Positions 28,601-52,702 are shown, counted from the stretch's first letter. The stretch: DNA of 64,000 nucleotides from Microtetraspora malaysiensis (GCF_001528665.1 NZ_BBYJ01000004.1:310472-374471); one strand, 5' to 3'. Notes: a model not told the origin generated them from the sequence alone. Numbers and translations are program-made.

Positions 28601-30877
28601 CAGCCTGAGCAGCAGCCTCCCCATCTGCTCGTCGCAGCTCTCCGGTGTGCCGGCGAGCGCGAGCGCGGCGCTGACGGCCTGGCCGAGGAGGGCGAACTCG
28701 GCGGCGAACTCGGCTCTCTGCTCACCCGCGAGCAGTTCGCGGCGCCGCGCGGCGAGCGTCGCCCGCGCCTGGTTGATCCCCGCGAGCACCTCGGCGACGC
28801 GTTCCAGGATGCCGGTGCGTACGGTCGCGTCCGCGATGTCCAGCCCGCCCACGACCTCGGTCAGGACCTCAAGGCCTTCGGTCTGCCCGGCCAGCCGCTC
28901 GGCCACGGGGCCGGATTCCGCCACGGTCCCGATCGCCTGCGCCTCGGCGGTGAGCCGGTCCACGTCCGCGTGATATCCGGTGAACGCGTCCGCGCCCCGG
29001 AGGAACTCGACCGCTCTCCGCGCGGCCTCCGCGATCTCGGTGTCGAATCGGCCCGCCAGCGCGTCCAGCCGCTCGACGTCGACGTAGCGAACCTCCCGCA
29101 GCGTCGCGAGCCGGCCCTGGGCGCGGCGCAGCTCGGCCAGCCGCGCCACCCATTCGCCCGCCGACGCCGGCGCCTCTCCGCGCACCTGCCGGGCGAGAAG
29201 GGCGACGTTCTCGGCGGCCTCGTCCAGGGCGGCCGCGGCCTGCGCGGTGAGCGACTCTACCCGCTCGAACTCGTCGAGCACCTGCTCGGCGGTCGCGCGC
29301 ACCGCCCCGACGCCGGAGCGCAGGTCGTGCTCGTCCAGCCAGTGGTACTGGTCGGCGATCCGCACGCACGCCGCGATGAGCCCCTCGAACACCGGAACGG
29401 ACGGCTCCATCGCGTCGGCCATCCGCACGACGGAGAGGCAGTCGGAGATCCCGCGCACCAGGTCGGCGTTGCCGATCCGCTCCAGCGGCCCCGTGCCCAC
29501 CGGCCGGGCCGCCTCGAACACGTCCGACACGTACGGCGTCTGCCAGATCTGCATCAGGTGGACCCGGGTCGGCTCCTCGCGTACGGTCCGGCCCTGCTCG
29601 CCCGCGACCGGCGCGGGCGTCCGGAAGTACACGAGCGTGCCGTCCTCGAAGAGCGAGTACCCGTGACACGTGATCGGGTTGCTCACCTCCTTGCGGATCA
29701 CGTTGTACGGCAGGAGCAGCGACCGGCCCTCCGCCCGCGCGTGGAACACGTACAGCACGTCCTCGCCGTTGGGCGAGCGGATGAGGCGCTCGAACTCCAG
29801 CTCGGCGACGTCGAGGTCGAAGGTCTTCACGACGCCGGTGGTGAGGTGGTATCCGCCGGGGAAGACGATCCCCTGGTCCTCGGGGAGCCGCTGGCAGGCC
29901 TGCCCGATGCCGTCGAGGCGTTCGACCTTCCTGGTCCTGGTGTTGAACACCAGGTGGCGCCACTCCTTCTCGTTGTACGGCCGTACGCGCAGCAGGATCA
30001 GCGGCCCGACCCTGGCGTAGTGGACGTCGGCGTCGGCGAGGCTCTGCAGCGGTTCCACGACCGGTTCCCGGTAGATGCCCTCACCGGTCTCGGTGTTGTT
30101 CTCGATCTTGATGGTGAGGTCGCCGCCGACCGTCTCGACGAACACCTCGTCCTCGATCGAGATGTGCGGATGGCGGCCGAGGACGTGGTCGTCCCGCGTG
30201 GTCTCGATCCACTCGAAGTCGTGCGACGGCGGGAAGACGTGGTCGCGTTCGCCCCGATTGTCGACATAGCGGACTGTGCCGTCGGTCGCGACGCTCCACC
30301 GCAGGACCCGGATGTCCTGCGGCCCGGTCTGGAACACGGCCAGCAGCCGCCCCTCCAGCCGCCGGAGCTGCAACAGCCTGGTCTCGCTGTAGTAGCGGTA
30401 CAGCTCGGCGAAGTCCCGCTCGAACGCCGGGTCGTCGAACAGCCCCGGCACCTCGTCGAACCGGAACGTGTCCCCGTCCCGGGTGAACCGGTGGAACGAG
30501 AAGACGTCCCGGGGGGTGGTCCCCGACTTCAGTCCGATGAACACGTTGTAGCCGAACAGCATGACCTCGCCGAGCGAGACGCTGTCGCGGGGCACGCAGT
30601 TGTTCTCGGTGCGGACGCGGGCGGTGCCGAGCAGGCGGAAATCCGCTCCGCCGAAGACCTCCAGCCGCCGCGCGTTCAGCTCCTCGGTCCGGCGCAGCAG
30701 CTCCTTCGCCTGCGTGGCCAGCCTGTCTCGCAGCACCTCGTACGTGCTGGAGTCCAGCTCGGCGGGTGCGGCCGACGGCCCGGTCCCGGCCTCCGCCGGT
30801 GTGGTCGTCGTGGCCGCGGATGTGGTCGTCGGCGTACTCATGGGCGTGCTCATCGGTGTGCTCATCGGTGTGCTCAT
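25676..30877 (-). CDS. Giant (about 1,730 aa) AAA+ ATPase with N-terminal beta-rich domain and long coiled-coil/Ala-Arg-Glu-rich middle; flotillin-operon-associated
   Basis: Walker A ISPPGYGKTTLMEY, Walker B ALLYLDDIQHT, sensor region NPYTESGQRFRVPDMLANRADVW near the C-terminus. Start placed at the first of four tandem ATG-Ser-Thr-Pro codon repeats (30875-30877), 50 bp after the flotillin stop. The track ORF starting at 30976 would overlap flotillin. Confidence 0.7.
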   Translation of the reverse strand: MSTPMSTPMSTPMSTPTTTSAATTTTPAEAGTGPSAAPAELDSSTYEVLRDRLATQAKELLRRTEELNARRLEVFGGADFRLLGTARVRTENNCVPRDSVSLGEVMLFGYNVFIGLKSGTTPRDVFSFHRFTRDGDTFRFDEVPGLFDDPAFERDFAELYRYYSETRLLQLRRLEGRLLAVFQTGPQDIRVLRWSVATDGTVRYVDNRGERDHVFPPSHDFEWIETTRDDHVLGRHPHISIEDEVFVETVGGDLTIKIENNTETGEGIYREPVVEPLQSLADADVHYARVGPLILLRVRPYNEKEWRHLVFNTRTRKVERLDGIGQACQRLPEDQGIVFPGGYHLTTGVVKTFDLDVAELEFERLIRSPNGEDVLYVFHARAEGRSLLLPYNVIRKEVSNPITCHGYSLFEDGTLVYFRTPAPVAGEQGRTVREEPTRVHLMQIWQTPYVSDVFEAARPVGTGPLERIGNADLVRGISDCLSVVRMADAMEPSVPVFEGLIAACVRIADQYHWLDEHDLRSGVGAVRATAEQVLDEFERVESLTAQAAAALDEAAENVALLARQVRGEAPASAGEWVARLAELRRAQGRLATLREVRYVDVERLDALAGRFDTEIAEAARRAVEFLRGADAFTGYHADVDRLTAEAQAIGTVAESGPVAERLAGQTEGLEVLTEVVGGLDIADATVRTGILERVAEVLAGINQARATLAARRRELLAGEQRAEFAAEFALLGQAVSAALALAGTPESCDEQMGRLLLRLEDLESRFGDFDDFVAKLEARRGDVYEAFSSRRQTLLDARARRAERLVASSGRILESVRRRAGSLGSIDEVNTYFASDPMVAKLRAVADELRSLGDQVRADELDGRVKAARLDAGRALRDRLDLYADGGETIRLGRHRFSVNTQPIDLTMVPVDGRMAFAITGTDYRSPVDDEAFHRTRAFWDQVLVSESPEVYRAEHLAASILDLAESASGGGLTLDELHAALAGGGLPDLVRRLAETRYDEGYERGVHDHDAAAILGALLPVYARAGLLRFPPSARAAAQLFWTFGAGAAQREAWTTRARSLARARSLFRRGADTSGAPDAPAVDGDAVRDHGDAVRDDGVGGAIGELRAEFASAIAAFLRDRGVRLDDAEPAGDYLFDELAVSEAGFTTGPLARRLVERFREALGGSAAQFDAELRALGDDLAARHQLVMAWLTAFLGTSPDLVSPLRSGAVRREGGRPGTAADVRAGDLAEAVAVLLCDLPRREASMSLTVTVEGLLGAHPRLNGRTLTLRLDEVLARTRRFRTERVPAYRAYQKRRGELLDRERARMRLDEYRPKVMSAFVRNRLLDQVYLPLIGDNLAKQLGAAGEGRRTDQMGLLLLISPPGYGKTTLMEYVASRLGLMFVKINGPALGHAVTSLDPADAPNATARQEIEKVSFALECGNNALLYLDDIQHTSPELLQKFISLCDAQRRMEGVWNGGTRTYDLRGKRFAVCMAGNPYTESGQRFRVPDMLANRADVWNLGDVLSGREDLFALSYIENALTSNPVLAPLSTRDPADIELLVRLARGDADVRADQLAHPYQKVELDQVTAVLSKLTRIQRVVLGVNRAYIASAAQADASRTEPSFRLQGSYRNMNKLVERIVPVMNDAEVEALIDDHYAGEAQTLTSEAEANLLKLAELRGRMSDEQRRRWAEVKAGYLRARALGGDEDDPMVRAVGAIGLLADRVGGVERAIDRTTAHPDEPGPAAPPA

Positions 30878-30886
30878 CAGCGCTGT
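30839..30886. repeat. 12-bp tandem repeat x4 (atgagcacaccg on minus strand) encoding MSTP MSTP MSTP MSTP at the 5' end of the giant ATPase gene
   Basis: cat at 30839-41, 30851-53, 30863-65, 30875-77 on plus strand, each followed by the same 9 bases. Confidence 0.85.
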
Positions 30887-30926
30887 CGTGGGCGCGTCAC
30901 GTGGTCCTCGGTGCCGGGTCGCACCA

Positions 30927-33074
30927 TCAGTGCTTCGCCGAGTTGGCCGGCGCCGAACCGGCCTCGGCCGGTGCACCGGTTCTCGAGCCGGCCGCCGTAC
31001 CCGTCGCCCCGGCGACGGCCGAGAGCGACCGGTCGGCGACGCCGAGGCTGCGGGCGGCGCTCAGCAGATCCTGGAGCTTGCCCGCGTCCGGGCCACCCGC
31101 GTTGATCAGCTTCAGCAGCACGGCCGAGAGCGTGAGGTTCCGTACGTCGGCGGTGTCCACCGAGCCGACGAGGCGCATCAGGTCCGCGGGCAGGCTCGCC
31201 GTCCCGTCCAGGTATGGCCCGGCCAGCGCCCGCGTCACCGCGGAGTTCTCGACGAAGCCGTCCACGCTCCGGCCCGCCGTGATCGAGTTCATCAACCGGT
31301 CGAAGAAGACGGTGTCGCCGCCCACGATGTCGATGTCGGCGTTCTCCAGGCCCGCGGCGAGCACGGTCGCCTGGGCGTCCGCGATCTCCCGCTGGACGTC
31401 GATGTTCTTGAGGCGGATCTCCTTCTCGGCCTCCAGCCGCAACCGGTACTCCTCGTGGCCCCGGCTCGCCTCGTCGAGCGCCGCCATGGCCTCGGCCTTC
31501 TCCTTGAGGCCCTCCGCCTCCGCCTTCAGCTTCTCGCCCACGGCGGCGGCAGCGGCGAGGGCCTTCGCCTGCTCGCCCTCGGCCTCCGCCTTGAGCCGCT
31601 CGCCGACGGCGAGCGCGGCGGCCAGGCCCTTCTCCCGCTCCACGGCGGCCTCCGCGCGCCCGACCTTCTCGATCGCCTCGGCGTCCCGTTCGCGTACCTG
31701 CACCTCGGCGAGCCCGGCGGCCGCCGCCTCGGCCCGCAGCCCCTCCGCGAGGCGGATCTTGGCCTGGCTGTCGAGCTCGGCCGCCTGCTGCCGCGCCTCG
31801 GCCAGGACGAGTTCCTCGCGCGCCTTGAACGTGGCCGCCTGCTCCGCGGCCTCGGCCGCCTTGATGTCCTTGACCAGGTTCTCCTGTGCCTCGGCCTCCG
31901 CCTGGATCACCAGCGCCTGACGGACCCGCTCGGCCTCCTCGACGACGCGCAGGCGCTTGATGTTCTCCTCCTGCTCGGCGACCGTCTTCTCCACGGCGAT
32001 CCGCTCGCGGGTCACTTCGGCGATGGCCCGCCGCTCGACTTCGAGCTCCTTGTCCTTGGAGATGCGCGACAGCTCGGTCTCCCGCTCGCGGGAGATCACC
32101 TCCAGCAGGCGATCCTTCTCGATCCGCTCGCTCTCGATGGCGATGACCCGCTCGCGGTTCTTCCCCGCGACCTGGATCTCCCGCTCGCGGTTCTCGCGCT
32201 GGATGCCGAGCTGCTCCTCCGTACGGATGTTGGCCGCCTCGAACTTGAGCCGCTCCTCCGCCTGCACCCGGGCCGTCTCGGCCTCCTCCCGCGCCCGCAC
32301 GGTGTCGATCTCGCGCCGCTGCTTGGCCTCGGCGTCGGCCTGCCGCCGCTCCAGTTCGAGGATGGCCTCCCGCGCGTCGACGTTCTGGCGGGTGATCTCC
32401 TTCTCCTCGTTGCGCTGGTACTCATTGGTGCGCACGTGCTCGATCGCCGTCAGCTCGGTGATCTTCCGGATGCCCTGCGCGTCGAGGATGTTCGCCGGGT
32501 CGAGCTGGGCGAGCGGGGTCTGCTCCAGGAAGTCGATCGCGGCGTCCTCCAGGCTGTAGCCGTTCAGGTCGGTTCCGATCACCCTGATGATCTGGTCCCG
32601 GAATTCGTCGCGCTTGGTATAGAGATCGACGAAATCGAGCTGCTTTCCGACCGTCTTGAGCGCCTCGGAGAACTTGGCGTTGAACAGCTCCTGCAAGGTC
32701 GTCTCGTCGCTCGCGCGTACCGTGCCGATCGCCTGCGCGACCTTGATCACGTCTTCGACCGTCTTGTTGACCCGTACGAAGAACGTGATCCGGATGTCCG
32801 CCCGGATATTGTCGCGACAGATCAGCCCTTCATGCCCGGTACGCGTGATCTCAATGGTCTTCACGGAGATGTCCATCACCTCCGACTTGTGGAGAACGGG
32901 AAGCACGACGGCGCCCGTGAAGGTGACATCGACCCGCCGCGTCTTGGAGACGATCAGCGCCATGCCCTGTTCGACCTTGCGATAGAGGCGGCTCACGACG
33001 ACGACCGCGCCGATGACGACAAGAAGGAGAACGGCGAGAAGCACGCCCGTCCCGGTGCTGATCACATCCACCAT
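30927..33074 (-). CDS. Flotillin (SPFH/band-7 family) protein with long coiled-coil EA-repeat C-terminal region
   Basis: N-terminal TM helix, SPFH domain (ALIVSKTRRVDVTFTGAVVLPVLHKSEVMDISVKTIEI...), extended Glu/Ala/Arg coiled-coil typical of FloT/YuaG. Confidence 0.85.
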   Translation of the reverse strand: MVDVISTGTGVLLAVLLLVVIGAVVVVSRLYRKVEQGMALIVSKTRRVDVTFTGAVVLPVLHKSEVMDISVKTIEITRTGHEGLICRDNIRADIRITFFVRVNKTVEDVIKVAQAIGTVRASDETTLQELFNAKFSEALKTVGKQLDFVDLYTKRDEFRDQIIRVIGTDLNGYSLEDAAIDFLEQTPLAQLDPANILDAQGIRKITELTAIEHVRTNEYQRNEEKEITRQNVDAREAILELERRQADAEAKQRREIDTVRAREEAETARVQAEERLKFEAANIRTEEQLGIQRENREREIQVAGKNRERVIAIESERIEKDRLLEVISRERETELSRISKDKELEVERRAIAEVTRERIAVEKTVAEQEENIKRLRVVEEAERVRQALVIQAEAEAQENLVKDIKAAEAAEQAATFKAREELVLAEARQQAAELDSQAKIRLAEGLRAEAAAAGLAEVQVRERDAEAIEKVGRAEAAVEREKGLAAALAVGERLKAEAEGEQAKALAAAAAVGEKLKAEAEGLKEKAEAMAALDEASRGHEEYRLRLEAEKEIRLKNIDVQREIADAQATVLAAGLENADIDIVGGDTVFFDRLMNSITAGRSVDGFVENSAVTRALAGPYLDGTASLPADLMRLVGSVDTADVRNLTLSAVLLKLINAGGPDAGKLQDLLSAARSLGVADRSLSAVAGATGTAAGSRTGAPAEAGSAPANSAKH

Positions 33075-33086
33075 CGAAGATCCCTG

Positions 33087-33647
33087 CTATTGAAGGTCGT
33101 AAGGCATGACCAAGAAGAACTCGCCCTCCGGGTCATAGTCGAAGATCAGAGCGGAGCTGCCGGCACGCAGATCCTCGTCTCCGGTCTGGCGCACCTGCAC
33201 AAGGGCCGAGGAGCCGTCATCGGCCGTGACCTCGGCCTGACCGAAGTCGTGCCCGACCCGTCCCGTGCGGATGACGCACATGCGGCCGACGAAATCGGCC
33301 CGGGACGGCGAAGCCACCGCGGGGAACAGGGCGCGGCTCGCCCGCGCGACCAGGCGGGCGCAGAGCCATCCGGCCAGCAGCGCGACCACGAGCACCGCCC
33401 ACCGAGCGGGAGGCCCCTCGGCCAGCACCACGCCGACCAGGCTGACGAACCAGGCGACCACGACCAGCAGCGACAGCGCCACGGCACCCGGCACTCCCCG
33501 TAGGCCGAGACCGGCGAGGAAATCGTCGGGGAGCTCCATCCCGAGTCCGCCGAGCAGCACGAGCGCCCAATAGACGATGACGACGATCAGCATGAAGCTG
33601 AACAGCACCGCCGGAAACTCCAGCACCGCATCGACGAACCGCGCCAT
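33087..33647 (-). CDS. NfeD-like membrane protein (flotillin partner, YuaF-like OB-fold)
   Basis: Three to four TM helices then C-terminal beta OB-fold (GRMCVIRTGRVGHDFGQAEVTADDGSSALVQVRQ...); 13 bp upstream of flotillin on same strand. Confidence 0.7.
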   Translation of the reverse strand: MARFVDAVLEFPAVLFSFMLIVVIVYWALVLLGGLGMELPDDFLAGLGLRGVPGAVALSLLVVVAWFVSLVGVVLAEGPPARWAVLVVALLAGWLCARLVARASRALFPAVASPSRADFVGRMCVIRTGRVGHDFGQAEVTADDGSSALVQVRQTGDEDLRAGSSALIFDYDPEGEFFLVMPYDLQ

Positions 33648-33831: not shown

Positions 33832-35964
33832 TCAGCGGATGGTCTGCCGCTCGGTCAGGGCGGCATACCGGCCGCCGTGCCGCATCAGCTCGTCGTGGGT
33901 GCCCCGTTCGACGATCCGGCCCCTCTCGACGACGAGGATCTGGTCGGCGTCGCGCACCGTGCTCAGCCGGTGGGCGATCACGATGCGGGTCTGGGTCAGC
34001 CAGGCGAGGTTCCGCTCGATCGCGGCCTCGGCGGCGGTGTCGAGATGGCTCGTCGCCTCGTCGAGCAGCAGGACCCTGGGCTGGGGCAGGAGCGCCCGCG
34101 CGAGCGCGATCCGCTGCCGCTGCCCGCCGGAGATGCCGCTGCCCTCAGTGAGCATCGTCTCGTACCCCATGGGCATGGCCATGATGTCGTCGTGGACGCA
34201 GGCCATCCTGGCCGCCGCCACCACCTGCTCCAGCGAGGCGTCGGGAACGGCCAAGCCGATGTTGTCCCTGATGGTCCCGGTGAAGAGGTGCGGCTCCTGG
34301 GTGACCACGCCGAAGCGGCTACGCAACCAGCGCGCGTCGATGTCCCACGCAGGCATCCCGTCGTACCAGACGTCACCCTCGACCGGCTGGTACAGGCCCA
34401 GCAGGATCCGTCCCAGCGTGCTCTTGCCCGACCCGGAACTGCCCACCAGGGCGATCTTCTGCCCGGGTCCGACCGCGAGCGACACGTTCCTGACCGTCCA
34501 TGGGGAGCGCGGGTCGAAGCGGAATCCGACATCCCGGAGGACCACCTCTCCGCGCAGGTGCGGCCGCTTCCTGCCTCTCCGCTCGGGCTCGGCCTCGACG
34601 ATGTCGGCCAGCCGCTCGAAGTGCGCCCCTGCCTCCTGGAGCTCCTGCAGGCTGGTCAGCAGCGAGGTCAGCGGGGTGAGGGTGGACATGGCCAGCGCGT
34701 TGAGCGCGAGCATGGTGCCCAGAGTCAGCTCGCCGTCGAGCACCCGTGACGCGCCCACGAGCAGCAGCAGCGCGGGACCGAGGACCCTGATCCCCGACAG
34801 GACCGCATCCAGGGCCCCGCGGGTCAGGCCGAGACGCACGTCGGCGTTCATCTGGGCGGTGAACATCCTGGACCACCGCTCCATGGCACGCCATTCGGCG
34901 CTGGACGCCTTGATGGTCTCGATGCCTCCGATGGACTCGATGAGCCGGCCCTGGGTCGTGGCGGCGGCGGTCAGCTCGCGCCCGGTCAGGTCGGCGATCC
35001 GCCTCCGGGTGGCCAGCAGCAGCGCGACCTGGACGACCGCCACGGCGAGCAGGCATCCTCCGAGCACGGGATCGCCCAGGAGGACCAGAGTCATGAGGAC
35101 CGCGGCCATCGGACCGTCGAGCAGCGCGGAGAGCGCCTGGCCGGAGAGCATGGCCCGGAGGCTGGCCGCGCTCTGCGTGCTCATGACCAGGTCGCTCGTC
35201 CCCCTGAGGGTGAAGAACCGGTAGGGCAACGTGAACAGGTGCCCGACCACACCCGCCGTGAACTGGGTGTCCGCCCGCGCCCGCAACATGAGCAGCACGG
35301 CCGTACGGAGGTACGTGAGGATCGCCTGGATGAGCACCACGAAGCCGAGCCCCACGATGAGGATCCGCAGCAGATAGCGGTTCCCTCCGGGAAGTACCTC
35401 GTCGACGACGAGCCCGGAGAGCAGGGGAAGGACGAGGGTGACGCCCTGCAGCAGCAGGGACGCGAACAACCCCTGGAGCAGCAGGCCTCGGTGGCGGGCC
35501 AGCAGGGCGCGGACCAGGTCCCGGCGCCACGGGCGGCGCTGCGGGCCCCGGACGTCGAACTCGGGGCCGGGTTCGAAGGCCAGGACGACCCCGGTGAACC
35601 CGACGTCGAACTCCTCCGGCGTGAGCCTGCGCCGCCCGGAGGCGGGATCGACGACCTCGACGACGTCCGGGCGCCAGCGCTCGACGACCAGGAAGTGGTT
35701 GAACTCCCAGTGCACGATGAAGGGCCCGGGCACCGCGCCGAGCTGCTCGGGGGCGAGCGAGAACGCCTTGACGCGCAGGCCGTACGATCTGGCGGCCTCC
35801 GCGACGGCCGACGCGCTCAGCCCGTCCCGCGACACCTGGACGTGCTCGCCGACCTCGCGCACGGTCGTGCGGCGTCCGTGGTGCCTGAGAACCATCGCCA
35901 GGCAGGCGGCGCCGCAGTCGGCCATCGTGGCCTGCCTGATCACCGGTACCCGCCCGCGCCTCAT
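33832..35964 (-). CDS. Peptidase-C39-domain ABC transporter (bacteriocin/RiPP leader-cleaving exporter)
   Basis: N-terminal C39 papain-like domain with catalytic Cys context QATMADCGAACLAMV; 6-TM ABC exporter domain; nucleotide-binding domain with Walker A GSSGSGKST, signature LSGGQRQR, Walker B LLLDEATS. Start ATG 35962-64 overlaps upstream stop (ATGA). Confidence 0.85.
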   Translation of the reverse strand: MRRGRVPVIRQATMADCGAACLAMVLRHHGRRTTVREVGEHVQVSRDGLSASAVAEAARSYGLRVKAFSLAPEQLGAVPGPFIVHWEFNHFLVVERWRPDVVEVVDPASGRRRLTPEEFDVGFTGVVLAFEPGPEFDVRGPQRRPWRRDLVRALLARHRGLLLQGLFASLLLQGVTLVLPLLSGLVVDEVLPGGNRYLLRILIVGLGFVVLIQAILTYLRTAVLLMLRARADTQFTAGVVGHLFTLPYRFFTLRGTSDLVMSTQSAASLRAMLSGQALSALLDGPMAAVLMTLVLLGDPVLGGCLLAVAVVQVALLLATRRRIADLTGRELTAAATTQGRLIESIGGIETIKASSAEWRAMERWSRMFTAQMNADVRLGLTRGALDAVLSGIRVLGPALLLLVGASRVLDGELTLGTMLALNALAMSTLTPLTSLLTSLQELQEAGAHFERLADIVEAEPERRGRKRPHLRGEVVLRDVGFRFDPRSPWTVRNVSLAVGPGQKIALVGSSGSGKSTLGRILLGLYQPVEGDVWYDGMPAWDIDARWLRSRFGVVTQEPHLFTGTIRDNIGLAVPDASLEQVVAAARMACVHDDIMAMPMGYETMLTEGSGISGGQRQRIALARALLPQPRVLLLDEATSHLDTAAEAAIERNLAWLTQTRIVIAHRLSTVRDADQILVVERGRIVERGTHDELMRHGGRYAALTERQTIR

Positions 35965-36149
35965 CGCCCCGCTCCGAGCGCGGGAAGGACGCCGATCAGC
36001 ACCACGGCCGCCATCGCCATCGCGAGCAGCCCGACGTAGATCCACAGGCCGACCAGGAGCCTCCTGGAGATCCGGTACGGCCGCTCGACGCGCCGCCGGG
36101 CGGCCATGTGGTGGTGAACCGCCTTCTCCCGGTACGGAAGTCCCGTCAT
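35961..36149 (-). CDS. Small single-TM membrane protein (62 aa) translationally coupled within the graspetide operon
   Basis: ATG 36147-36149 overlaps the stop of the upstream parvulin-like gene (ATGA), and its own stop overlaps the ABC transporter start (ATGA). Sequence MTGLPYREKAVHHHMAARRRVERPYRISRRLLVGLWIYVGLLAMAMAAVVLIGVLPALGAGR has one hydrophobic helix. Confidence 0.45.
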   Translation of the reverse strand: MTGLPYREKAVHHHMAARRRVERPYRISRRLLVGLWIYVGLLAMAMAAVVLIGVLPALGAGR

Positions 36150-37198
36150 GTGCCGGCCCGCCCGGCCGTACCGGTCGAGTTCGCGACGCCGGAAGAGCCG
36201 GACGCGGCGGTCCGGTCCGCGGTCCCCCAGAACCATTCGATCTTGGCCGTGCTCCTGCGCCGCTCGATCCATTCGGCGAAGATCCGGCGCTCGACGAGCT
36301 CGCGCACGGTCCCGTCGAGAACGGCGGGCTCCACGGCCAGCACCTTGATCAGCAGGTGACCGTGTTCCGTCGCGAAAGGACCGGTGACCGTCCCCGGCGC
36401 GGCTCCGAAGACCCGGCCGGCCGTCTCTGGGCTCAGGTCCCCTCTGCGCAGCGTGGCGAACACCTCGCCCGGCCGTGCCGTGCCGTCCGCGAAAGCCCGC
36501 TCCGCGGCGTCGAGGAACCCGTCGGCGGCCGGCACGCGCGGCCCTTCGGTGAACTCCACCCGCGCGACGCGGGCGACGTCGAACTCGTGACCGTGCGCGG
36601 CGAACCAGTCATCGACCCGGCCGGCGGCCACCCGCGACCGGAGTCCGGCCACGGACGCCTCAAGGACGACCAGCTCCTCCAGCTCGTGGTGGGAGATGTG
36701 GTTGCGGTCCATCCATGCCCGGACCGCGCCGCCGGTCAGCAGCCCACGCGCCCGGCGGAACGCGTCCATCGCCTCCTGGAGCTCCGCGTCGGTCAGCGGT
36801 TCGGGCTCCTCCTCCCGCACCTCACGTACGAGGCTGTCGGTGACGAGGCGGTCGGCCAGCCGCGACTCGTCCCAGATGAAATCCAGGCAGGCGATCGCCC
36901 TGGCCACCGGGGTCTCGACACCGTTGACCCGGAGCAGCAGGTGCTCACCGGCCCGGTGGACACCGCGCAGCGGCCAGGGCAACGCCCGGTCGGGGCACCA
37001 GGAGAGGGAGATCGTGGCGCCGTCGCGTTCCTTGATGAGCAGAGCGTGATGGAGCGATCCGTCATATTCCTCACGCTGGGCGACCAGCCGCACCCGCGCC
37101 CCCGGGTACCGCGCCCTGAAGCCATCGAGGTCGTGCCCGGCCGTACCGGCGCCGAGCATGTCGATCGCCTCGGCGAGCATCCGTCCGTCCGTCACCAC
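36146..37198 (-). CDS. Peptide-maturation-system protein with C-terminal PpiC/parvulin-like domain
   Basis: C-terminal GEVFATLRRGDLSPETAGRVFGAAPGTVTGPFATEHGHLLIKVLAVEPA resembles parvulin rotamase fold; start GTG 37196-98 overlaps ATP-grasp stop (GTGGTGA); family of accessory proteins reported next to SAV_5884-type ATP-grasp RiPP maturases. Confidence 0.55.
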   Translation of the reverse strand: MVTDGRMLAEAIDMLGAGTAGHDLDGFRARYPGARVRLVAQREEYDGSLHHALLIKERDGATISLSWCPDRALPWPLRGVHRAGEHLLLRVNGVETPVARAIACLDFIWDESRLADRLVTDSLVREVREEEPEPLTDAELQEAMDAFRRARGLLTGGAVRAWMDRNHISHHELEELVVLEASVAGLRSRVAAGRVDDWFAAHGHEFDVARVARVEFTEGPRVPAADGFLDAAERAFADGTARPGEVFATLRRGDLSPETAGRVFGAAPGTVTGPFATEHGHLLIKVLAVEPAVLDGTVRELVERRIFAEWIERRRSTAKIEWFWGTADRTAASGSSGVANSTGTAGRAGT

Positions 37199-38157
37199 GT
37201 CACTCCGCTCATGAGCAGCTCGCCGACCGCCGCGCCGATGGGCAGCCCGGTCGCGTCCTCGATCCAGAGGAACTGGCCGTTCGGATTGATCTCCAGGAAG
37301 ACATGGCGGCCGTCCGGCGTGAGGATCAGGTCGATCGCGCCGTAGGCCAGCCCGAGCCGCTCGACCAGATCCAGGCACCGCTGGGAGATCTCCGGCGGCA
37401 GGTCGTGCGCCCGGATGGGCGTCGCGCCGGGGTCGTAGTGTCGCCAGTCGTACCGGGTGTGGTTGCTCACCTGGGAATGGATCTCCGCGGCGAAGACCTT
37501 CCTGCCCACCACGGTCACGCGTATCTCGACCCGCTTGGGCACGTACGCCTGGACGATGACCGGGCAGAAGCGCAGGGCGTCCGCGTAGGCGACGTCCACA
37601 GGGGTGACGGGGGCCGCGAACCGGCCGAACCGCTCTCCCTCCGCTTCGAGCTGGTTGCCGTGCACGGGCTTGGTGATCACACGGCCCTCGTGCCGGTCGT
37701 AGAAGTCGAGAAAACTCTCGGGGTCGGTCGTGACCAGCGTCGCGGGGAGCTCAAAGCCCAGCCGCCTGGCCAGTTCGAGCTGGTACGGCTTGCGCGCCGC
37801 GCGGTCGATGACCGGCCGGGAGCCGGGAACCGTGAGGCAGCCGAGGCTGTCCCAGAGGCTCTCGGCCATGACGCGGCACTCCTCCTCCACGTAGTCGCGG
37901 GCGGCGACCCTCGGATGCGCGACCGGGTCGAGGGGCCTGCGGTACCAGAGCGCGGTCACCTCGTCGAGGACGAGGCGGCGGCCCGCGCGGCCGAACATCC
38001 GGCTGGTCGAACCATCCCCGGAGTGGCTGATCTCGAGGGTGGCGGCGGTCGGGAAGGAGGCGGGATCGAAGACGACGACATCCGCGCCCGCGGTCATGAG
38101 CGGTTTCACGACCCGGTCGGCGTGCTCATCTCCGTCAGAGGTCAGGACGAGGATCAT
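37192..38157 (-). CDS. ATP-grasp ribosomal peptide maturase (MvdD/MdnC-like; graspetide macrolactone/lactam ligase)
   Basis: Start MILVLTSDGDEHADRVV (hallmark N-terminus of RiPP ATP-grasp ligases), ATP-grasp fold motifs (VITKPVHGNQ, EIHSQVSNHTRYDWRHYD, GAIDLILTPDGRHVFLEINPNGQFLWIE); 50 bp downstream of precursor gene. Confidence 0.8.
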   Translation of the reverse strand: MILVLTSDGDEHADRVVKPLMTAGADVVVFDPASFPTAATLEISHSGDGSTSRMFGRAGRRLVLDEVTALWYRRPLDPVAHPRVAARDYVEEECRVMAESLWDSLGCLTVPGSRPVIDRAARKPYQLELARRLGFELPATLVTTDPESFLDFYDRHEGRVITKPVHGNQLEAEGERFGRFAAPVTPVDVAYADALRFCPVIVQAYVPKRVEIRVTVVGRKVFAAEIHSQVSNHTRYDWRHYDPGATPIRAHDLPPEISQRCLDLVERLGLAYGAIDLILTPDGRHVFLEINPNGQFLWIEDATGLPIGAAVGELLMSGVTW

Positions 38158-38206
38158 CGGCGGGGCTCCGGACGGGGGCGCGACGCGGTCGCGCCCCCGC
38201 GGCGAA

Positions 38207-38356
38207 CTAGTTGCTGTCGCCGGAGGTGTGCGTGTGGTTGCCGCAGATCTCGATGACCTGGCTCTTGGCGCCACCGCTCACCTGAAGAAGCTGACCCTCG
38301 TCGAGCTCCGGACCGAAGGCCGCGATGTCGTCGAGGGTGGTACGCGTCTTGCTCAT
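38207..38356 (-). CDS. Graspetide precursor peptide (49 aa) with double-glycine leader
   Basis: Ribosome-binding site GGGAGAAAGG 10 bp before ATG 38354-56. Sequence is MSKTRTTLDDIAAFGPELDEGQLLQVSGG / AKSQVIEICGNHTHTSGDSN: leader ends in GG (substrate for the C39 transporter), and the core carries Thr/Ser hydroxyl donors and Asp/Glu acceptors. Confidence 0.7.
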   Translation of the reverse strand: MSKTRTTLDDIAAFGPELDEGQLLQVSGGAKSQVIEICGNHTHTSGDSN

Positions 38357-38538
38357 GCGTATCCCCGCCTTTCTCCCGTACGGGGGCACCTGATGCGCCC
38401 CGTTGCACCGAGCAAGCTAGGCGAGCGGCACCTGGCCGGGCGTCCGTCGCGCGGGTGATCTTGTGTCATCCCGGCGGGGGGCGCGGATCGGGGTTCCGGG
38501 TGTTTCCATCCCTGGTTTCCGGTCCGACCCCGACGTAT

Positions 38539-38553
38539 ATGAGCGCAGCTCAT
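38539..38553. promoter_or_regulatory. 6-3-6 inverted repeat ATGAGC gca GCTCAT in the promoter region of the graspetide operon
   Basis: Read directly, about 185 bp upstream of precursor start. Confidence 0.3.
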
Positions 38554-38655
38554 GCGGGTTCGCCGGCCCTCACCCCTCACCCCGGCCACGTGATTCCGCC
38601 CGAACCGACCGAGCGTCCCAACGGGGCGGGGAGCCGACGCTGACCGGGGCCTGCG

Positions 38656-39546
38656 TCAGCGGACGCGGCCGACCATGCGCGCGTACATACGGCCGGGACT
38701 CGGCACTGAGGGCGGGTGCAGGAAGCCCGGCAGCATGGGCAGGTCGACGGAGAAAGGCTGCAGTCGCTCGTAGAGCGTGACGGCGTCGGCGGGGCGATTC
38801 TCCGGCTGCTTCTCCAGCAGCTCGGCGATCAGCCGGTCGAGCTCGACCGGGACGTCGGGCACCGACGGCGGGCGTTCCTTCACCTGCTTGTCGAACACGG
38901 CGTACTCGGTCGGCCCCGTGAACAGCGGCTTGCCGGTCAGCATCTCGTGCAGGACACAGCCGAGAGCGTAAAGATCGCTCTTCGGGCCGGCGACGCCGCG
39001 CTGGATCTGCTCCGGCGACATGTACGCGGGGGTGCCGAGGATCTGCCCGACCCGGGTGAACTGGGCGCCGTCCGACTCGCGCAGCATCGCCAGACCGAAG
39101 TCGAGGACCTTGACGCTGCCGTCGGGGCAGAGCATCAGGTTCGTCGGCTTGAGATCACGGTGACAGATGGACAGCGCGTGCGCCGCGGTCAGCACCGCGC
39201 ACGCCTGGGCGGCGATCGCCGCGGCCCACGGGACCGGGAGCGGGCCATATTCGCTGACCAGGTCGGCGACCGTGACGCCCTCGATGAACTGCATCACCTG
39301 GAAGAGGCGCTGATCGTACGTGCCGAAGTCGTAGAGGACGGGCGCGCCCGGATGCTCCAGGCGGGCGAGGATGCGCGCCTCTCGGATGAACCGGCGCTCC
39401 AGCTCCTCGTCATGACCACCCGGAAAGCGGAGGAACTTCACCGCCACCTTGCGGTCGAGACGCCTGTCGTGGCCGCCGTAGACGGCCCCCATGCCGCCCT
39501 GGCCGAGAGGAAGGTCGTCCAGCTCATACCGGTCACCGATGACCAT
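38656..39546 (-). CDS. Ser/Thr protein kinase (catalytic domain only, 296 aa)
   Basis: [33 protein letters not shown] motifs; 38 bp downstream of the methyltransferase gene on the same strand. Confidence 0.8.
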
Positions 39547-39584
39547 CCGCCCCTCCCGTCGGACTTTCGGGAAAAGCTACACCT

Positions 39585-41696
39585 TCACGCGCGCGGTCGT
39601 AGACGGCCGTCAACCAGCCCCTCCAACCCCAGCCGGATCAGCGCCTCGCCCGCGTCGGCCACTTCCCTGATCGCGTCCTCCAGTTCGGCGAGCCGCCGGA
39701 AGGCCGCCCCGTACGCCCGCTGCTCGACCAGCGGGAGCCGCGGGACGCGAGCCCGGCGGACGTCGACGCGGCTGGCTCCCGGGTGCGCCCGGGCGGCCGC
39801 GTACCGCAGGAATCCGGCGAGGAAGTCCGCGTCGAGCCGGGACCGATCCACCTGGTAAAGCGAGAGCTGCGGGCCGAGGACGGCGCCCGGCTGGTGGATC
39901 ACGCGTGCGGTCGTCGTCGAGGCCACCACGTCTCCGGCCGCCACCGTGACGATGCCGGGCTCACTGCCGGAGCGACCGGACGGCGTCCCGCCTCGGGCGA
40001 GGTCGTCGGCGGTCAATACGTTGAGATCTCCGCTGTCCGCGGTTTTCAGCACCGAATGCCGCACCGTCACCATCCCGGCCTTGGCCAGATCGGTGATGGC
40101 GGTCGTGGGGAGGCCGGCTCGCCCGGACAGCACCTCCAGGTCGGGCAGCGCCCCCGCCGCCTCGGCCAGCACCTCGGCGAGGTCGCGGAGCCCGCGCCCG
40201 GCGGCGGGATAACGCTGCGCGTCGCCACGTGAGGAGACGTGCCGGGCCGGGCTGACGTCCACCTCGTCGTCGAGCAGATCGATGATCCGTACGATCCGGG
40301 CAGAGCGCGGCAACTCGCCTGCCGAGGCCACCGCCGCGGCCTGCCTCGCAACGCCACCGGACGTCCGGCCTTCGGCCACCGAACCGGCGGCCGGCCCGCG
40401 TCGGGCGGCTTCCGGCGCTGCGGGACCGGCCGTGTCCGTGCCGGCGAAACCTTCGCCGGCCGTAGGACTCGTGCCGACGTAACCCGCGTCGGCCAGGTAG
40501 GTCCACCAGGCCGACTCGACGATCGAGAGGTCGTCGGAGGCGTCGGCGAGCAGGATCGACGCCGGGGAGGGCGCCCCCGCCTCCGGCCGGCGCAGCAGCC
40601 AGAGATCCGGCCCCGCGGCGGACAGGCCGATGACCGCGCGCAGGGCTCCGGCGCGGAGCAGGTTCGCGCGGATCCGACGGCCGGAACGCCGGGCCGCGGC
40701 CGCGGCCGGCATCAGGATCGCCACCAGGCCGCCGGGACGCGCGTGGGCCAGGCAGTGCTGGACCCAGGCCAGCTCCGGCTCGCCGCGCGGGGGCACGCCG
40801 TAGTCCCAGCGCGGATCGCCGATCAGCTCCTCGTGGCCCCACGCCCGCTCGTTGAAGGGCGGGTCGCACAGCACCACGTCCGCCCGCTCGCCCTCGAATC
40901 CGTCGTGCCGTAACGAGTCGCCCGCCACGACGCGCGCGTTCGCGTCGCGCAGGAGGAGCCGCAGCGAGGCGAGCAGAGCAGAGGTCTCGTTGATCTCCTG
41001 GCCGAGCAGACGCACCGGCGGCGCACCGGGCGGCGCGCCGTCGAGGACGGCGGTGTCCGAGACCGCGAGCAGGAGCGTTCCCACACCGACCGCCGGGTCG
41101 AGGATCGCGCCTCCTTCGGGACACGCCTGGCGCGCGAGCCGCGCCATGAGCGACGCCACCTCGCCCCGCGTGACCGCGAGCCGCCGGGTGTGCGCCTCCA
41201 CGTAGCGCTCGCAGACGAACTCGAACGCGGTGGCCGGTCCGTGGAGCGCGGACAGGTCCGCGATCCACCGGATGAGCTGCGCGTCCTCCAGGACGCTCCC
41301 CGGCCGGGCCGGAAGGTCGGCCGTGGCCGCCGCGACCTCGCGCGGCAGCCGTACGACCAGGTCGGGAGCGGCGGCGAGCCGGCGCCAGCCGTCGGGATCC
41401 CGTCGCGCGTAAAGGAGGAACGCCCCCGCGAAACCGCTGAGCTCGCCCAGCCGGAGGTCGTCCACGGCGGCCCTGAGCCCCTGCCAGACACGGTCGCCCA
41501 GCGACACCTCGAAGGACTTGCCGTTCCTGCGCAGCCACTCCTCGATCTCGGGCAGCGAGAACAGCGGGCTGGACGCGGTGCCGCCCACCGGGTGGGGAAA
41601 GTCCTCATACCGACGGCGCCAGTTGCTCACCGCGGCCCTCCCGACGTCGGCTAGGCGGGCGATGTCGCCCGCGTTCACTGTGGCGTCGTGGCTCAT
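39585..41696 (-). CDS. N6-adenine DNA methyltransferase fused to HsdS-like target-recognition domain, with N-terminal HTH
   Basis: Motif I ILDPAVGVGTLL, motif IV LCDPPFN (gamma-class N6A methyltransferase); C-terminal PRLPLVEQRAYGAAFRRLAELEDAI resembles the conserved HsdS helix; N-terminal MSHDATVNAGDIARLADVGRAAVSNWRR HTH. Start set to ATG 41694-96 to leave a divergent promoter. Confidence 0.7.
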   Translation of the reverse strand: MSHDATVNAGDIARLADVGRAAVSNWRRRYEDFPHPVGGTASSPLFSLPEIEEWLRRNGKSFEVSLGDRVWQGLRAAVDDLRLGELSGFAGAFLLYARRDPDGWRRLAAAPDLVVRLPREVAAATADLPARPGSVLEDAQLIRWIADLSALHGPATAFEFVCERYVEAHTRRLAVTRGEVASLMARLARQACPEGGAILDPAVGVGTLLLAVSDTAVLDGAPPGAPPVRLLGQEINETSALLASLRLLLRDANARVVAGDSLRHDGFEGERADVVLCDPPFNERAWGHEELIGDPRWDYGVPPRGEPELAWVQHCLAHARPGGLVAILMPAAAAARRSGRRIRANLLRAGALRAVIGLSAAGPDLWLLRRPEAGAPSPASILLADASDDLSIVESAWWTYLADAGYVGTSPTAGEGFAGTDTAGPAAPEAARRGPAAGSVAEGRTSGGVARQAAAVASAGELPRSARIVRIIDLLDDEVDVSPARHVSSRGDAQRYPAAGRGLRDLAEVLAEAAGALPDLEVLSGRAGLPTTAITDLAKAGMVTVRHSVLKTADSGDLNVLTADDLARGGTPSGRSGSEPGIVTVAAGDVVASTTTARVIHQPGAVLGPQLSLYQVDRSRLDADFLAGFLRYAAARAHPGASRVDVRRARVPRLPLVEQRAYGAAFRRLAELEDAIREVADAGEALIRLGLEGLVDGRLRPRA

Positions 41697-41753
41697 GACG
41701 ACAAGCTTAGCTGGAGCTTGTGAAGTCATTCAACCAGTGCTTTACTCAAAAGC

Positions 41754-42747: not shown

Positions 42748-43416
42748 TCAGGGGCGGAAGCGATAGCCCATGCCGGGCTCGGTGATGAGGTGCACGGGGT
42801 GGGCGGGATCCTGCTCCAGCTTGCGGCGGAGCTGTGCCATGTACTGCCGGAGGTAGTGCGTCGCCGTCACATACGTGGCACCCCACACCTCGGTGAGCAT
42901 CTGACGCTGGCTGACCAGCTTCTCGGGGTTGCGCAGCAGGATCTCCAGCAGGTGCCACTCCGTCGGGGTGAGCCGTACGCCGCTCGAGATCGTCTTGTCG
43001 GCCAGGTTGATCGTGTGGTCGCCGATCCGCACCACCGGGGTCTCGGCCTGCTGCGCCGCCGCACGGCGTGTGGCGGCGCGGACTCGGGCGAGCAGTTCGT
43101 CGAGGCCGAACGGCTTGGTGACGTAGTCGTCAGCCCCCGCGTCGAGGGCGCTGACCGCGTCGGCGCTGCCCACCCGGCCGGTGAGCACGATGATCGGCAC
43201 CTGGCTCCACCCGCGCAGGCCGTGGATCACGTCGATGCCCTCGATGTCCGGCAGGCCCAGGTCGAGCACGACAAGGTCGGGATGCCAGTCGGCGGCCTGG
43301 CGTAGCGCGGAGCCGCCGTCCGCGGCGACCGCCACCTCGTAGTGCCGGGCGGCGAAGTTGATGCGCAGCGCGCGGAGGATCTGCGGCTCGTCGTCGACGA
43401 TGAGGATCTTGGTCAT
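42748..43416 (-). CDS. kdpE: KdpE response regulator (OmpR family)
   Basis: 222 aa; receiver domain (ILIVDDEPQILRAL...DLVVLDLGLPD) plus winged helix; immediately downstream of and overlapping kdpD (ATGA). Confidence 0.85.
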   Translation of the reverse strand: MTKILIVDDEPQILRALRINFAARHYEVAVAADGGSALRQAADWHPDLVVLDLGLPDIEGIDVIHGLRGWSQVPIIVLTGRVGSADAVSALDAGADDYVTKPFGLDELLARVRAATRRAAAQQAETPVVRIGDHTINLADKTISSGVRLTPTEWHLLEILLRNPEKLVSQRQMLTEVWGATYVTATHYLRQYMAQLRRKLEQDPAHPVHLITEPGMGYRFRP

Positions 43417-52620: not shown

Positions 52621-52628
52621 TCGTTCTG

Positions 52629-52702
52629 TGCGCCGCCAGGGACTCGAACCCCGGACCCGCTGATTAAGAGTCAGCTGCTCTAACCAACTGAGCTAGCGGC
52701 GC
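52629..52702 (-). tRNA. tRNA-Lys (anticodon CTT)
   Basis: Reverse complement folds as a cloverleaf: acceptor gcgccgc/gcggcgc, anticodon stem gctga/tcagc with loop cuCUUaa, T-loop GGTTCGAGTCC; 74 nt, CCA not encoded. Confidence 0.85.

Follow-up and report, generated by a model that had tools for sequence, protein, structure and literature searches.

A probable self-contained five-gene cluster for a graspetide of group 21 (rosaritide type) in Microtetraspora malaysiensis

In a window of 64,000 nucleotides from Microtetraspora malaysiensis (GCF_001528665.1, NZ_BBYJ01000004.1:310472-374471; the window is the whole stretch of DNA that was analyzed, and positions are counted from its first letter), five consecutive open reading frames (ORFs) are found on the minus strand at positions 33832-38356. 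A previous reading, made from the sequence alone and called the sequence-only reading here, had described these as a complete cluster for a graspetide, a peptide that is made by the ribosome and modified after translation (RiPP), matured by an ATP-grasp ligase. Both the ORF listing and the raw sequence confirm the five genes, and all five translations are 100% identical to RefSeq proteins of M. malaysiensis. Hence, the gene calls do not depend on the sequence-only reading. In the direction of transcription, the cluster contains the gene of a 49-residue precursor peptide (38207-38356; WP_157570127.1, 'hypothetical protein' in RefSeq), an ATP-grasp graspetide synthetase of 321 residues (37192-38157; WP_067125261.1, 'MvdC/MvdD family ATP grasp protein'), a partner protein of the TIGR04500 family resembling MirC of the rosaritide system (36146-37198; WP_157570126.1, 'TIGR04500 family putative peptide maturation system protein'), a single-pass membrane protein of 62 residues (35961-36149; WP_067125256.1, 'hypothetical protein') and a peptidase-containing ATP-binding cassette (ABC) transporter, PCAT, of 710 residues (33832-35964; WP_067125253.1, 'peptidase domain-containing ABC transporter').

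The last four genes are chained by overlapping start and stop codons, which read GTGGTGA (37192-37198), ATGA (36146-36149) and ATGA (35961-35964), as had been claimed before. For the TIGR04500 gene, RefSeq uses the second GTG at 37195 as start codon, which yields a protein of 349 residues and the usual overlap of four nucleotides with the ligase gene. A scan of species-representative genomes revealed 80 related loci, and 28 of these form a close group from Nonomuraea, Streptosporangium, Sphaerisporangium and Microtetraspora glauca. The overlaps are kept in these relatives. Here, the junction between ligase and partner gene shows an [AG]TGA overlap in 28/28 related loci, and the other two junctions show a four-base overlap in all 16 loci which harbor those genes (in one case as TTGA).

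The likeness to the related loci stops at about 33832 and about 38460; M. glauca (L002), the closest relative, alone extends into the upstream spacer to about 38650. Since no related locus shares any flanking gene, the cluster appears as a self-contained cassette. Consensus scans found no promoter upstream of the precursor gene and no canonical terminator within the operon. Behind the PCAT stop codon, the folding that would indicate a terminator equals that of shuffled sequence (z 0.01).

The precursor gene is preceded by the Shine-Dalgarno-like sequence AGAAAGGCGGGGAT (38361-38374, minus strand). This resembles the actinobacterial Shine-Dalgarno consensus and corresponds to the ribosome-binding site noticed earlier. 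The peptide consists of a leader of 29 residues, MSKTRTTLDDIAAFGPELDEGQLLQVSGG (38270-38356), and a core of 20 residues, AKSQVIEICGNHTHTSGDSN (38210-38269), followed by the stop codon at 38207-38209, all on the minus strand. The leader ends with ELDEGQLLQVSGG (...QVSGG) and is followed by AKSQ, which represents a typical double-glycine signal. Orthologues of the precursor are present in 28/28 close loci (E 1e-21 to 1e-27), so the homologous loci do not lack the precursor ORF, and the leader is common to the 80 loci. The precursor itself has no match in a Pfam set that does not contain PF27893.1; this accession is carried, in precomputed form, by peptides of the precursor family (P0133, P0154-P0175). 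In UniRef, the M. glauca precursor is named 'Albusnodin family lasso peptide' and one Dactylosporangium precursor 'Lantibiotic'; both look like misannotated graspetide precursors. Two precursor-like ORFs each are found at two of the 80 loci, L051 and L056. Those of L056 overlap and may therefore be one gene, and in L051 the ligase and the partner are also matched twice each, on opposite strands.

Between the stop codon of the precursor and the start codon of the ATP-grasp gene, a GC-rich stem-loop, GCGGGGGCGCGAC-CGC-GTCGCGCCCCCGT, is located (38172-38200, minus strand), which has a perfect stem of 13 bp. In a context of 86 nucleotides it folds with -42.4 kcal/mol (z -2.8), and 0/200 shuffled sequences were as stable. 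A comparable hairpin with differing loops and flanks is present in 28/28 related loci, nine core pairs are conserved and one pair is compensatory (G-C to A-U). An Rfam search over the whole window matched the stem-loop to no known RNA family. In other RiPP operons, such stem-loops serve as attenuators or stabilize the mRNA. By analogy, the stem-loop probably acts as a read-through attenuator or as a stabilizer of the short precursor mRNA.

The ATP-grasp protein displays an MvdD-type pre-ATP-grasp domain (PF21068, E 1.5e-10) and an ATP-grasp domain, with a DWR motif at residues 237-239. Its best model is TIGR04187 (GRASP_SAV_5884 maturase) with 245 bits (E 8e-73), next are MvdD (225 bits) and MvdC, and RimK scores far lower. 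A similar ranking was obtained against the PDB, where MdnC (5ig9) is matched with an E-value of 7e-50, MdnB with 2e-45 and CdnC with 3e-34, AMdnB and PsnB are also found, and RimK reaches only 2e-4. Thus, the protein groups with the microviridin-type ligases and not with RimK or the D-Ala ligases. The ligases adjoining TIGR04497-passing precursors in Microbispora and Rhodococcus are matched with E-values of about 1e-119 to 1e-122, and MirB, the ligase of the rosaritide system, with 35% identity and an E-value of 1e-11, over MirB residues 1-131 only.

The partner protein passes the TIGR04500 cutoff of 180 with 395 bits (E 2e-118). An N-domain and a SurA/PrsA-like chaperone domain can be distinguished, and about residues 208-292 form a parvulin insert that is degenerate. 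An AlphaFold2 model with a predicted local distance difference test score (pLDDT) of 80 matches Cj1289, SurA, PEB4 and PrsA over 250-300 columns in Foldseek (E about 2e-8), the family profile matches SurA (4e-10), and the protein is 42% identical to the N-terminus of MirC (first 131 residues). The term 'parvulin-like', as used in the sequence-only reading, is therefore right for fold and sequence. It probably does not extend to function, since the catalytic residues are not conserved: the insert contains no invariant His, Cys or Ser column within the family, and the second catalytic-His position of parvulins is occupied by Leu.

The exporter contains the domains Peptidase_C39 (PF03412, E 3e-33), PF00664 (ABC membrane) and PF00005 (ABC ATPase). 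The C39 domain is encoded at about 35563-35949 and has its full catalytic set (Gln11, Cys17, His90 and Asp106); Walker A and B are found at residues 508 and 631, respectively. Full-length matches were obtained to ComA (4e-97) and PCAT1 (4ry2, 7.5e-95). The identification as a C39-peptidase ABC exporter is thereby supported, and with QVSGG/AKSQ on the side of the precursor also the assumption that a double-glycine leader faces this exporter. Twelve cassettes without a nearby PCAT or 62-residue gene (L006-L008, L011, L014, L017-L019, L021, L024-L026) still keep the Gly-Gly leader.

The 62-residue protein, which precedes the exporter, shows a conserved cytoplasmic motif, [FY]R-E-x-A-[VL]-x-x-H, as well as a single transmembrane (TM) helix, and neither Pfam nor NCBIfam contains a family that matches it. 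A hidden Markov model (HMM) was built from the close homologues only and iterated over all ORFs of the 80 loci (16,260), where it settled on 40. Each of these sits between the TIGR04500 and PCAT genes and displays [FY]R-x-x-A-[VL]-x-x-[HY] followed by a TM helix. In metagenome-assembled genomes of Chloroflexota and Acidobacteriota as well as in one Planotetraspora genome, the homologues have a length of about 190-220 residues. A model of a long form (pLDDT 70) has membrane-fusion or periplasmic adaptors as top matches (Foldseek: MacA, BesA, EmrA and ZneB, E 2e-3 to 2e-2), and Pfam and NCBIfam scans of the 62-residue protein and the long forms gave nothing significant, the best being the CzcB adaptor with an E-value of 0.056. 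The 62-residue protein is without the extracytoplasmic lipoyl and beta-barrel domains of the HlyD/membrane-fusion-protein adaptors, and it is best read as the remnant, that is the cytoplasmic tail and membrane anchor, of a membrane-fusion-type PCAT adaptor. An adaptor remnant of this kind is previously undescribed and points to an unrecognized subunit of actinobacterial exporters for Gly-Gly leaders. In the Rhodococcus loci (L057, L062, L073, L079), the PCAT and TIGR04500 genes overlap one another and no small gene separates them, which means that the remnant is dispensable in some lineages.

The architecture is that of graspetide group 21, which comprises 325 biosynthetic gene clusters, of which about 100% contain TIGR04500, 74% TIGR03796 and 65% TIGR04497 (Carter et al., ACS Chem Biol 2026, PMC13097080). 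In the co-occurrence table of HMMs found in at least 15% of a group, TIGR04500 and TIGR04497 are listed under group 21 only (PMC13097080). The first characterized member of this group is rosaritide from Micromonospora rosaria NRRL 3718, encoded by MirA-D and reported in 2026 (PMC13097080). The sequence-only reading had regarded the product as probably uncharacterized; for the system as such this does not hold. The cluster is an added member of a known and recently characterized family, and the peptide itself is uncharacterized.

Rosaritide contains three interlocking macrolactones, all of them esters (Ser8-Asp22, Ser9-Asp26 and Thr11-Asp24; PMC13097080). Furthermore, MirB alone is inactive; both MirB and MirC are needed and co-purify as an active complex (PMC13097080). 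MirC has a SurA-type chaperone likeness with an extra N-domain, no isomerase action was found for it, and both prolines of rosaritide are trans (PMC13097080).

Within the 80 loci, a neighbor-joining tree of the ligases tracks the type of the core peptide. One clade contains rosaritide-like SSxV...DxDxDF cores (Microbispora, Rhodococcus), another IDPPGVCVED cores (Planobispora, Planomonospora) and a third, from Dactylosporangium, the core AKSQVCTKGSGGWSCSGDGMSD; the latter is sister to the clade of the window, whose core follows the pattern [AV][KR]SQVI[VET]I[HC][GN][GND]H[ST]HTSGDS(N). The core of the window thus belongs to a distinct, uncharacterized subfamily within group 21.

The sequence-only reading had described this core as rich in both donors and acceptors. 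This is correct for the donors, which are Ser3, Thr13, Thr15, Ser16 and Ser19, but not for the acceptors: only two acidic residues are present, Glu7 and Asp18, and Asp18 alone is conserved among the relatives. When the clade of the window and the Dactylosporangium sister clade are taken together with database peptides, Ser3, Val5, Ser16, Gly17 and Asp18 are left as the only invariant core positions. As Glu7 and Lys2 are exchanged in several of these peptides, no acceptor other than Asp18 and no distant donor other than Ser3 is conserved. KSQVI aligns with SSKTI of MirA, and Asp18, the third residue from the end, with Asp26, the second from the end. Because of this alignment, a predicted Ser3-Asp18 ester would be the counterpart of the Ser9-Asp26 link in rosaritide.

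The spacing of the core residues is consistent with such a link. With a two-residue turn at Gly10-Asn11, residues would pair if their positions add up to 21, which would bring Ser3 and Asp18 face to face. The same total is obtained for Cys6 and Cys15 of the sister clade; in a variant with one additional residue, it is 22 for both pairs. In rosaritide, two of the three links (9+26 and 11+24) likewise have a register in common. As the core is poor in acceptors, one ring is expected rather than several, and from its sequence a single Ser3-Asp18 macrolactone (-18 Da) is predicted, to which a strain-specific second link via Glu7 might be added. The calculated [M+H]+ of the linear core behind the Gly-Gly site is 2097.96, compared to 2079.95 with one ring and 2061.94 with two.

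A further feature of the core is the cluster of His and Cys residues. Positions 12 and 14 are always His; at position 9, 25 sequences have His (CAC) and 4 have Cys (TGC). The change at position 9 takes two nucleotide substitutions and was seen on two separate branches of the ligase tree, the window and a sub-clade of Nonomuraea, which fits selection for a metal ligand. In the putative hairpin, His/Cys9, His12 and His14, in this strain together with Glu7, would share one face and might form a metal site.

Taken together, the microviridin-type ligase, the conserved precursor, the TIGR04500 protein and the C39 exporter support the assignment as a graspetide biosynthetic gene cluster. We estimate with a probability of roughly 80% that the five genes represent a self-contained cluster of group 21 (rosaritide type) which works by the following mechanism. 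The precursor would be transcribed first, and the stem-loop right after its stop codon would limit read-through or stabilize the short precursor mRNA. The four downstream genes are translationally coupled via their four-nucleotide overlaps. By analogy with MirB and MirC, the MvdD-type ligase would work only in complex with the TIGR04500 protein as a SurA/PrsA-like scaffold. This complex would recognize the conserved 29-residue leader and activate the side chain of Asp18 as an acyl-phosphate, which would be attacked by the hydroxyl group of Ser3, so that a single macrolactone is formed (-18 Da). The resulting ester would hold together a beta-hairpin at its open end, the turn being Gly10-Asn11. 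Finally, the C39 domain would cut after Gly28-Gly29 and the ABC exporter would release the product of 20 residues, with the 62-residue protein presumably being a vestigial adaptor subunit of the exporter.

Within this mechanism, the ring pattern allows other solutions. Two rings would result if, besides Ser3-Asp18, a second ester or amide were formed with Glu7 as acceptor and Thr13, Thr15, Ser16, Ser19 or Lys2 as donor; the multiple (xN) dehydrations named in the sequence-only reading had implied a product of about this kind. Glu7 is present in the window and in 7/28 related loci, ligases of the rosaritide type install several rings, and positions 13 and 19 retain their hydroxyl residues across changes between the TCN and AGY families of serine codons, which suggests selection. 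However, of 29 sequences 18 have Val and 3 have Thr at position 7, which is hence no conserved acceptor, and in the register of the hairpin Glu7 would face His14 instead of a hydroxyl group, which makes a second ring possible but not probable. Alternatively, the single cross-link could be a Lys2-Asp18 macrolactam. According to the rosaritide report, graspetide ligases are able to form isopeptide bonds (PMC13097080), and Lys2 is present in most sequences, where it aligns with the donor Ser8 of MirA. Against this stands that Lys2 is replaced by Arg in three loci (L006-L008) and two database peptides, and by Arg, Pro or Gly in several members of the sister clade, while Ser3 is invariant; all three links in rosaritide are esters as well. 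The chance of a lactam is therefore slim, and the Ser3-Asp18 macrolactone is preferred.

The roles of the proteins can be questioned in the same way. A role of the TIGR04500 protein as a genuine peptidyl-prolyl isomerase that tailors the peptide might be suggested by a weak match to Rotamase PF00639 (23.0 bits, cutoff 21.7) and by the matches of the family profile to the isomerase domain of PrsA (5e-5) and to PpiC (4e-4). Nevertheless, proline is absent from all cores of the subfamily and 12/28 orthologous precursors have no Pro at all, which is evidence against isomerase chemistry; the insert is without a conserved residue of the catalytic type, and MirC is needed for the ligation itself while both rosaritide prolines are trans (PMC13097080). 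An isomerase is hence hardly conceivable. The protein is best read, by analogy with MirC, as a non-catalytic partner or chaperone on which the ligase depends, a role shown for MirC for which the lost catalytic residues and the Pro-free precursors give independent support. For the 62-residue protein, an origin as an unrelated small membrane protein, for example an immunity or regulatory peptide, has more in its favor: it has no match in Pfam or NCBIfam, is too short for a fold test and shares with the long forms only about 50 residues including the TM helix, which can inflate profile scores. Opposed to this, its presence and absence strictly track the PCAT in the close loci (16 and 12, respectively), the iterated search yielded exclusively ORFs at the same syntenic position, the shared motif lies outside the TM helix and the long forms have the predicted fold of membrane-fusion proteins. 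An unrelated protein is thus considered rather unlikely, and the adaptor remnant is retained. The least plausible reading, with a practically negligible probability, is that of a non-RiPP ligase of the RimK or D-Ala-D-Ala type with a small ORF upstream by chance. Some weak likeness to RimK exists (TIGR00768 4e-15, besides the PDB match mentioned above), but the models of peptide maturases are better by more than 50 orders of magnitude in E-value, and both the precursor ORF of the close loci and the common leader contradict it. Chance ORFs and a RimK-type ligase were effectively refuted by the family matches, the MdnC structure match and the conservation of the precursor.

Several observations weigh against the preferred reading of the cluster. 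The ATP-grasp protein groups with microviridin-type ligases, as a RiPP maturase should according to the sequence-only reading, but stays under the curated NCBI cutoff of TIGR04187 (245 versus 350 bits). Similarly, the precursor reaches 23.2 bits against TIGR04497 (GRASP_targ_2; cutoff 32) with the leader alone aligning, compared to 38.7 bits for MirA, which passes, and 97 bits for a Rhodococcus-type precursor, and the PCAT does not reach the TIGR03796 equivalog (634 bits, cutoff 853). The identity of 35-42% to the rosaritide enzymes applies to the N-terminal 131 residues compared. The 62-residue and PCAT genes occur together in 16/28 close loci and are both absent in 12/28, which are three-gene cassettes, so that the pathway does not depend on the exporter in every locus. 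For the long-form adaptor, the model confidence is moderate (pLDDT 70), and no Pfam or NCBIfam adaptor model matches its sequence. The stem-loop has no U-tract, and the covariation behind it is thin, being a single pair in two sequences. The number of rings and the ring partners are predictions from conservation, spacing and homology to rosaritide.

If these predictions hold, the partner-dependent graspetide family would have its simplest product in this peptide, which would contain one ring compared to the three of rosaritide and would be a convenient substrate to study how the complex of ligase and chaperone picks the ring partners. Independent of this, the Pro-free precursors represent a clean genetic argument against TIGR04500 proteins being isomerases. 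A more far-reaching picture can be drawn, which we consider distinctly unlikely. Here, the product would represent a minimal graspetide in the form of a beta-hairpin of 20 residues with one closing ester, Ser3-Asp18, and its His/Cys9-His12-His14 face (together with Glu7) would bind a transition metal, so that the peptide would be a chelator and no protease inhibitor; separately, the PCAT would work with the 62-residue adaptor remnant. If the latter were true, adaptors of this kind would have a cytoplasmic tail and a TM helix that are functional in their own right.

The surroundings of the cluster contain genes of other kinds. Directly upstream, at 38656-41729 (minus strand), a 296-residue Ser/Thr kinase (PADLOC PD-T4-6, 322 bits) lies beside a 714-residue N6 DNA methyltransferase (PADLOC MTase_I, 303 bits; weaker mad1/mad2/mad6). 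By their sequence, the two may be an anti-phage pair, which is found in no related graspetide locus. Downstream, at 25676-33647 (minus strand), a 1766-residue DUF3686/DUF7902/AAA ATPase, a 715-residue flotillin-like coiled-coil protein and a 186-residue NfeD-like membrane protein are encoded. The labels of the latter two were given from the sequence alone; neither has a Pfam match, and neither these two nor the ATPase match PADLOC. The kinase, methyltransferase and NfeD-like genes were rejected as cluster members, being common to no related locus. Further genes on the minus strand are those of a KdpE-like response regulator and a KdpD sensor kinase (PF02702, 3e-98) at 42748-46079 and a tRNA-Lys (CTT) at 52628-52702, the sole Rfam/ARAGORN match in the window.

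In comparison with known systems, the ligase shares the family of the pre-ATP-grasp and ATP-grasp folds and the DWR motif with MdnC and MdnB (5ig9, 5ig8), CdnC and PsnB. These enzymes form omega-ester and omega-amide bonds in a leader-dependent manner, the same chemistry as ascribed to the ligase of the window. In contrast, microviridin and other ligases of this kind are partner-free and act on TxKYPSD-type cores, whereas the ligase of the window is expected, by analogy, to need its TIGR04500 partner. The latter resembles SurA, PrsA, Cj1289 and PEB4 in its chaperone domain, its one parvulin-like insert and its C-terminal helix. It differs from these in being cytoplasmic, in an additional N-domain, conserved and about 110 residues long, with an ALPWPLRG motif and in the loss of the catalytic residues, and its client would be the complex of ligase and precursor instead of secreted proteins. 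The exporter resembles PCAT1 (4ry2) and ComA (8hf4) in its C39, TM and nucleotide-binding domains as well as in its Gly-Gly leader substrate. The 62-residue gene is homologous to the N-terminus of EmrA/MacA/BesA-fold proteins, but unlike the HlyD/membrane-fusion accessory proteins its product is reduced to 62 residues (tail and TM helix) with no extracytoplasmic domains, and the long forms have no alpha-hairpin.

The closest comparison is that with the mir cluster of rosaritide. Both clusters have in common the set and order of genes, that is precursor, TIGR04187-like ATP-grasp ligase, TIGR04500 partner and TIGR03796-like PCAT, as well as 29-residue Gly-Gly leaders with the pattern I/L-D-x-I-x-A-x-G-x-E-L. 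Furthermore, the N-proximal core motifs are homologous (SSKTI versus KSQVI), and an Asp is located 1-2 residues from the C-terminus. On the contrary, the core of the window has 20 instead of 27 residues, is Pro-free and carries a loop rich in His and Cys, and AKSQVIEICGNHTHTSGDSN does not display the SSxT ... DxDxD pattern of three lactones. It offers one conserved acceptor, Asp18, compared to Asp22, Asp24 and Asp26, and one predicted ring compared to three. Finally, the 62-residue gene between partner and PCAT distinguishes the cluster of M. malaysiensis from the mir cluster, for which none is described.

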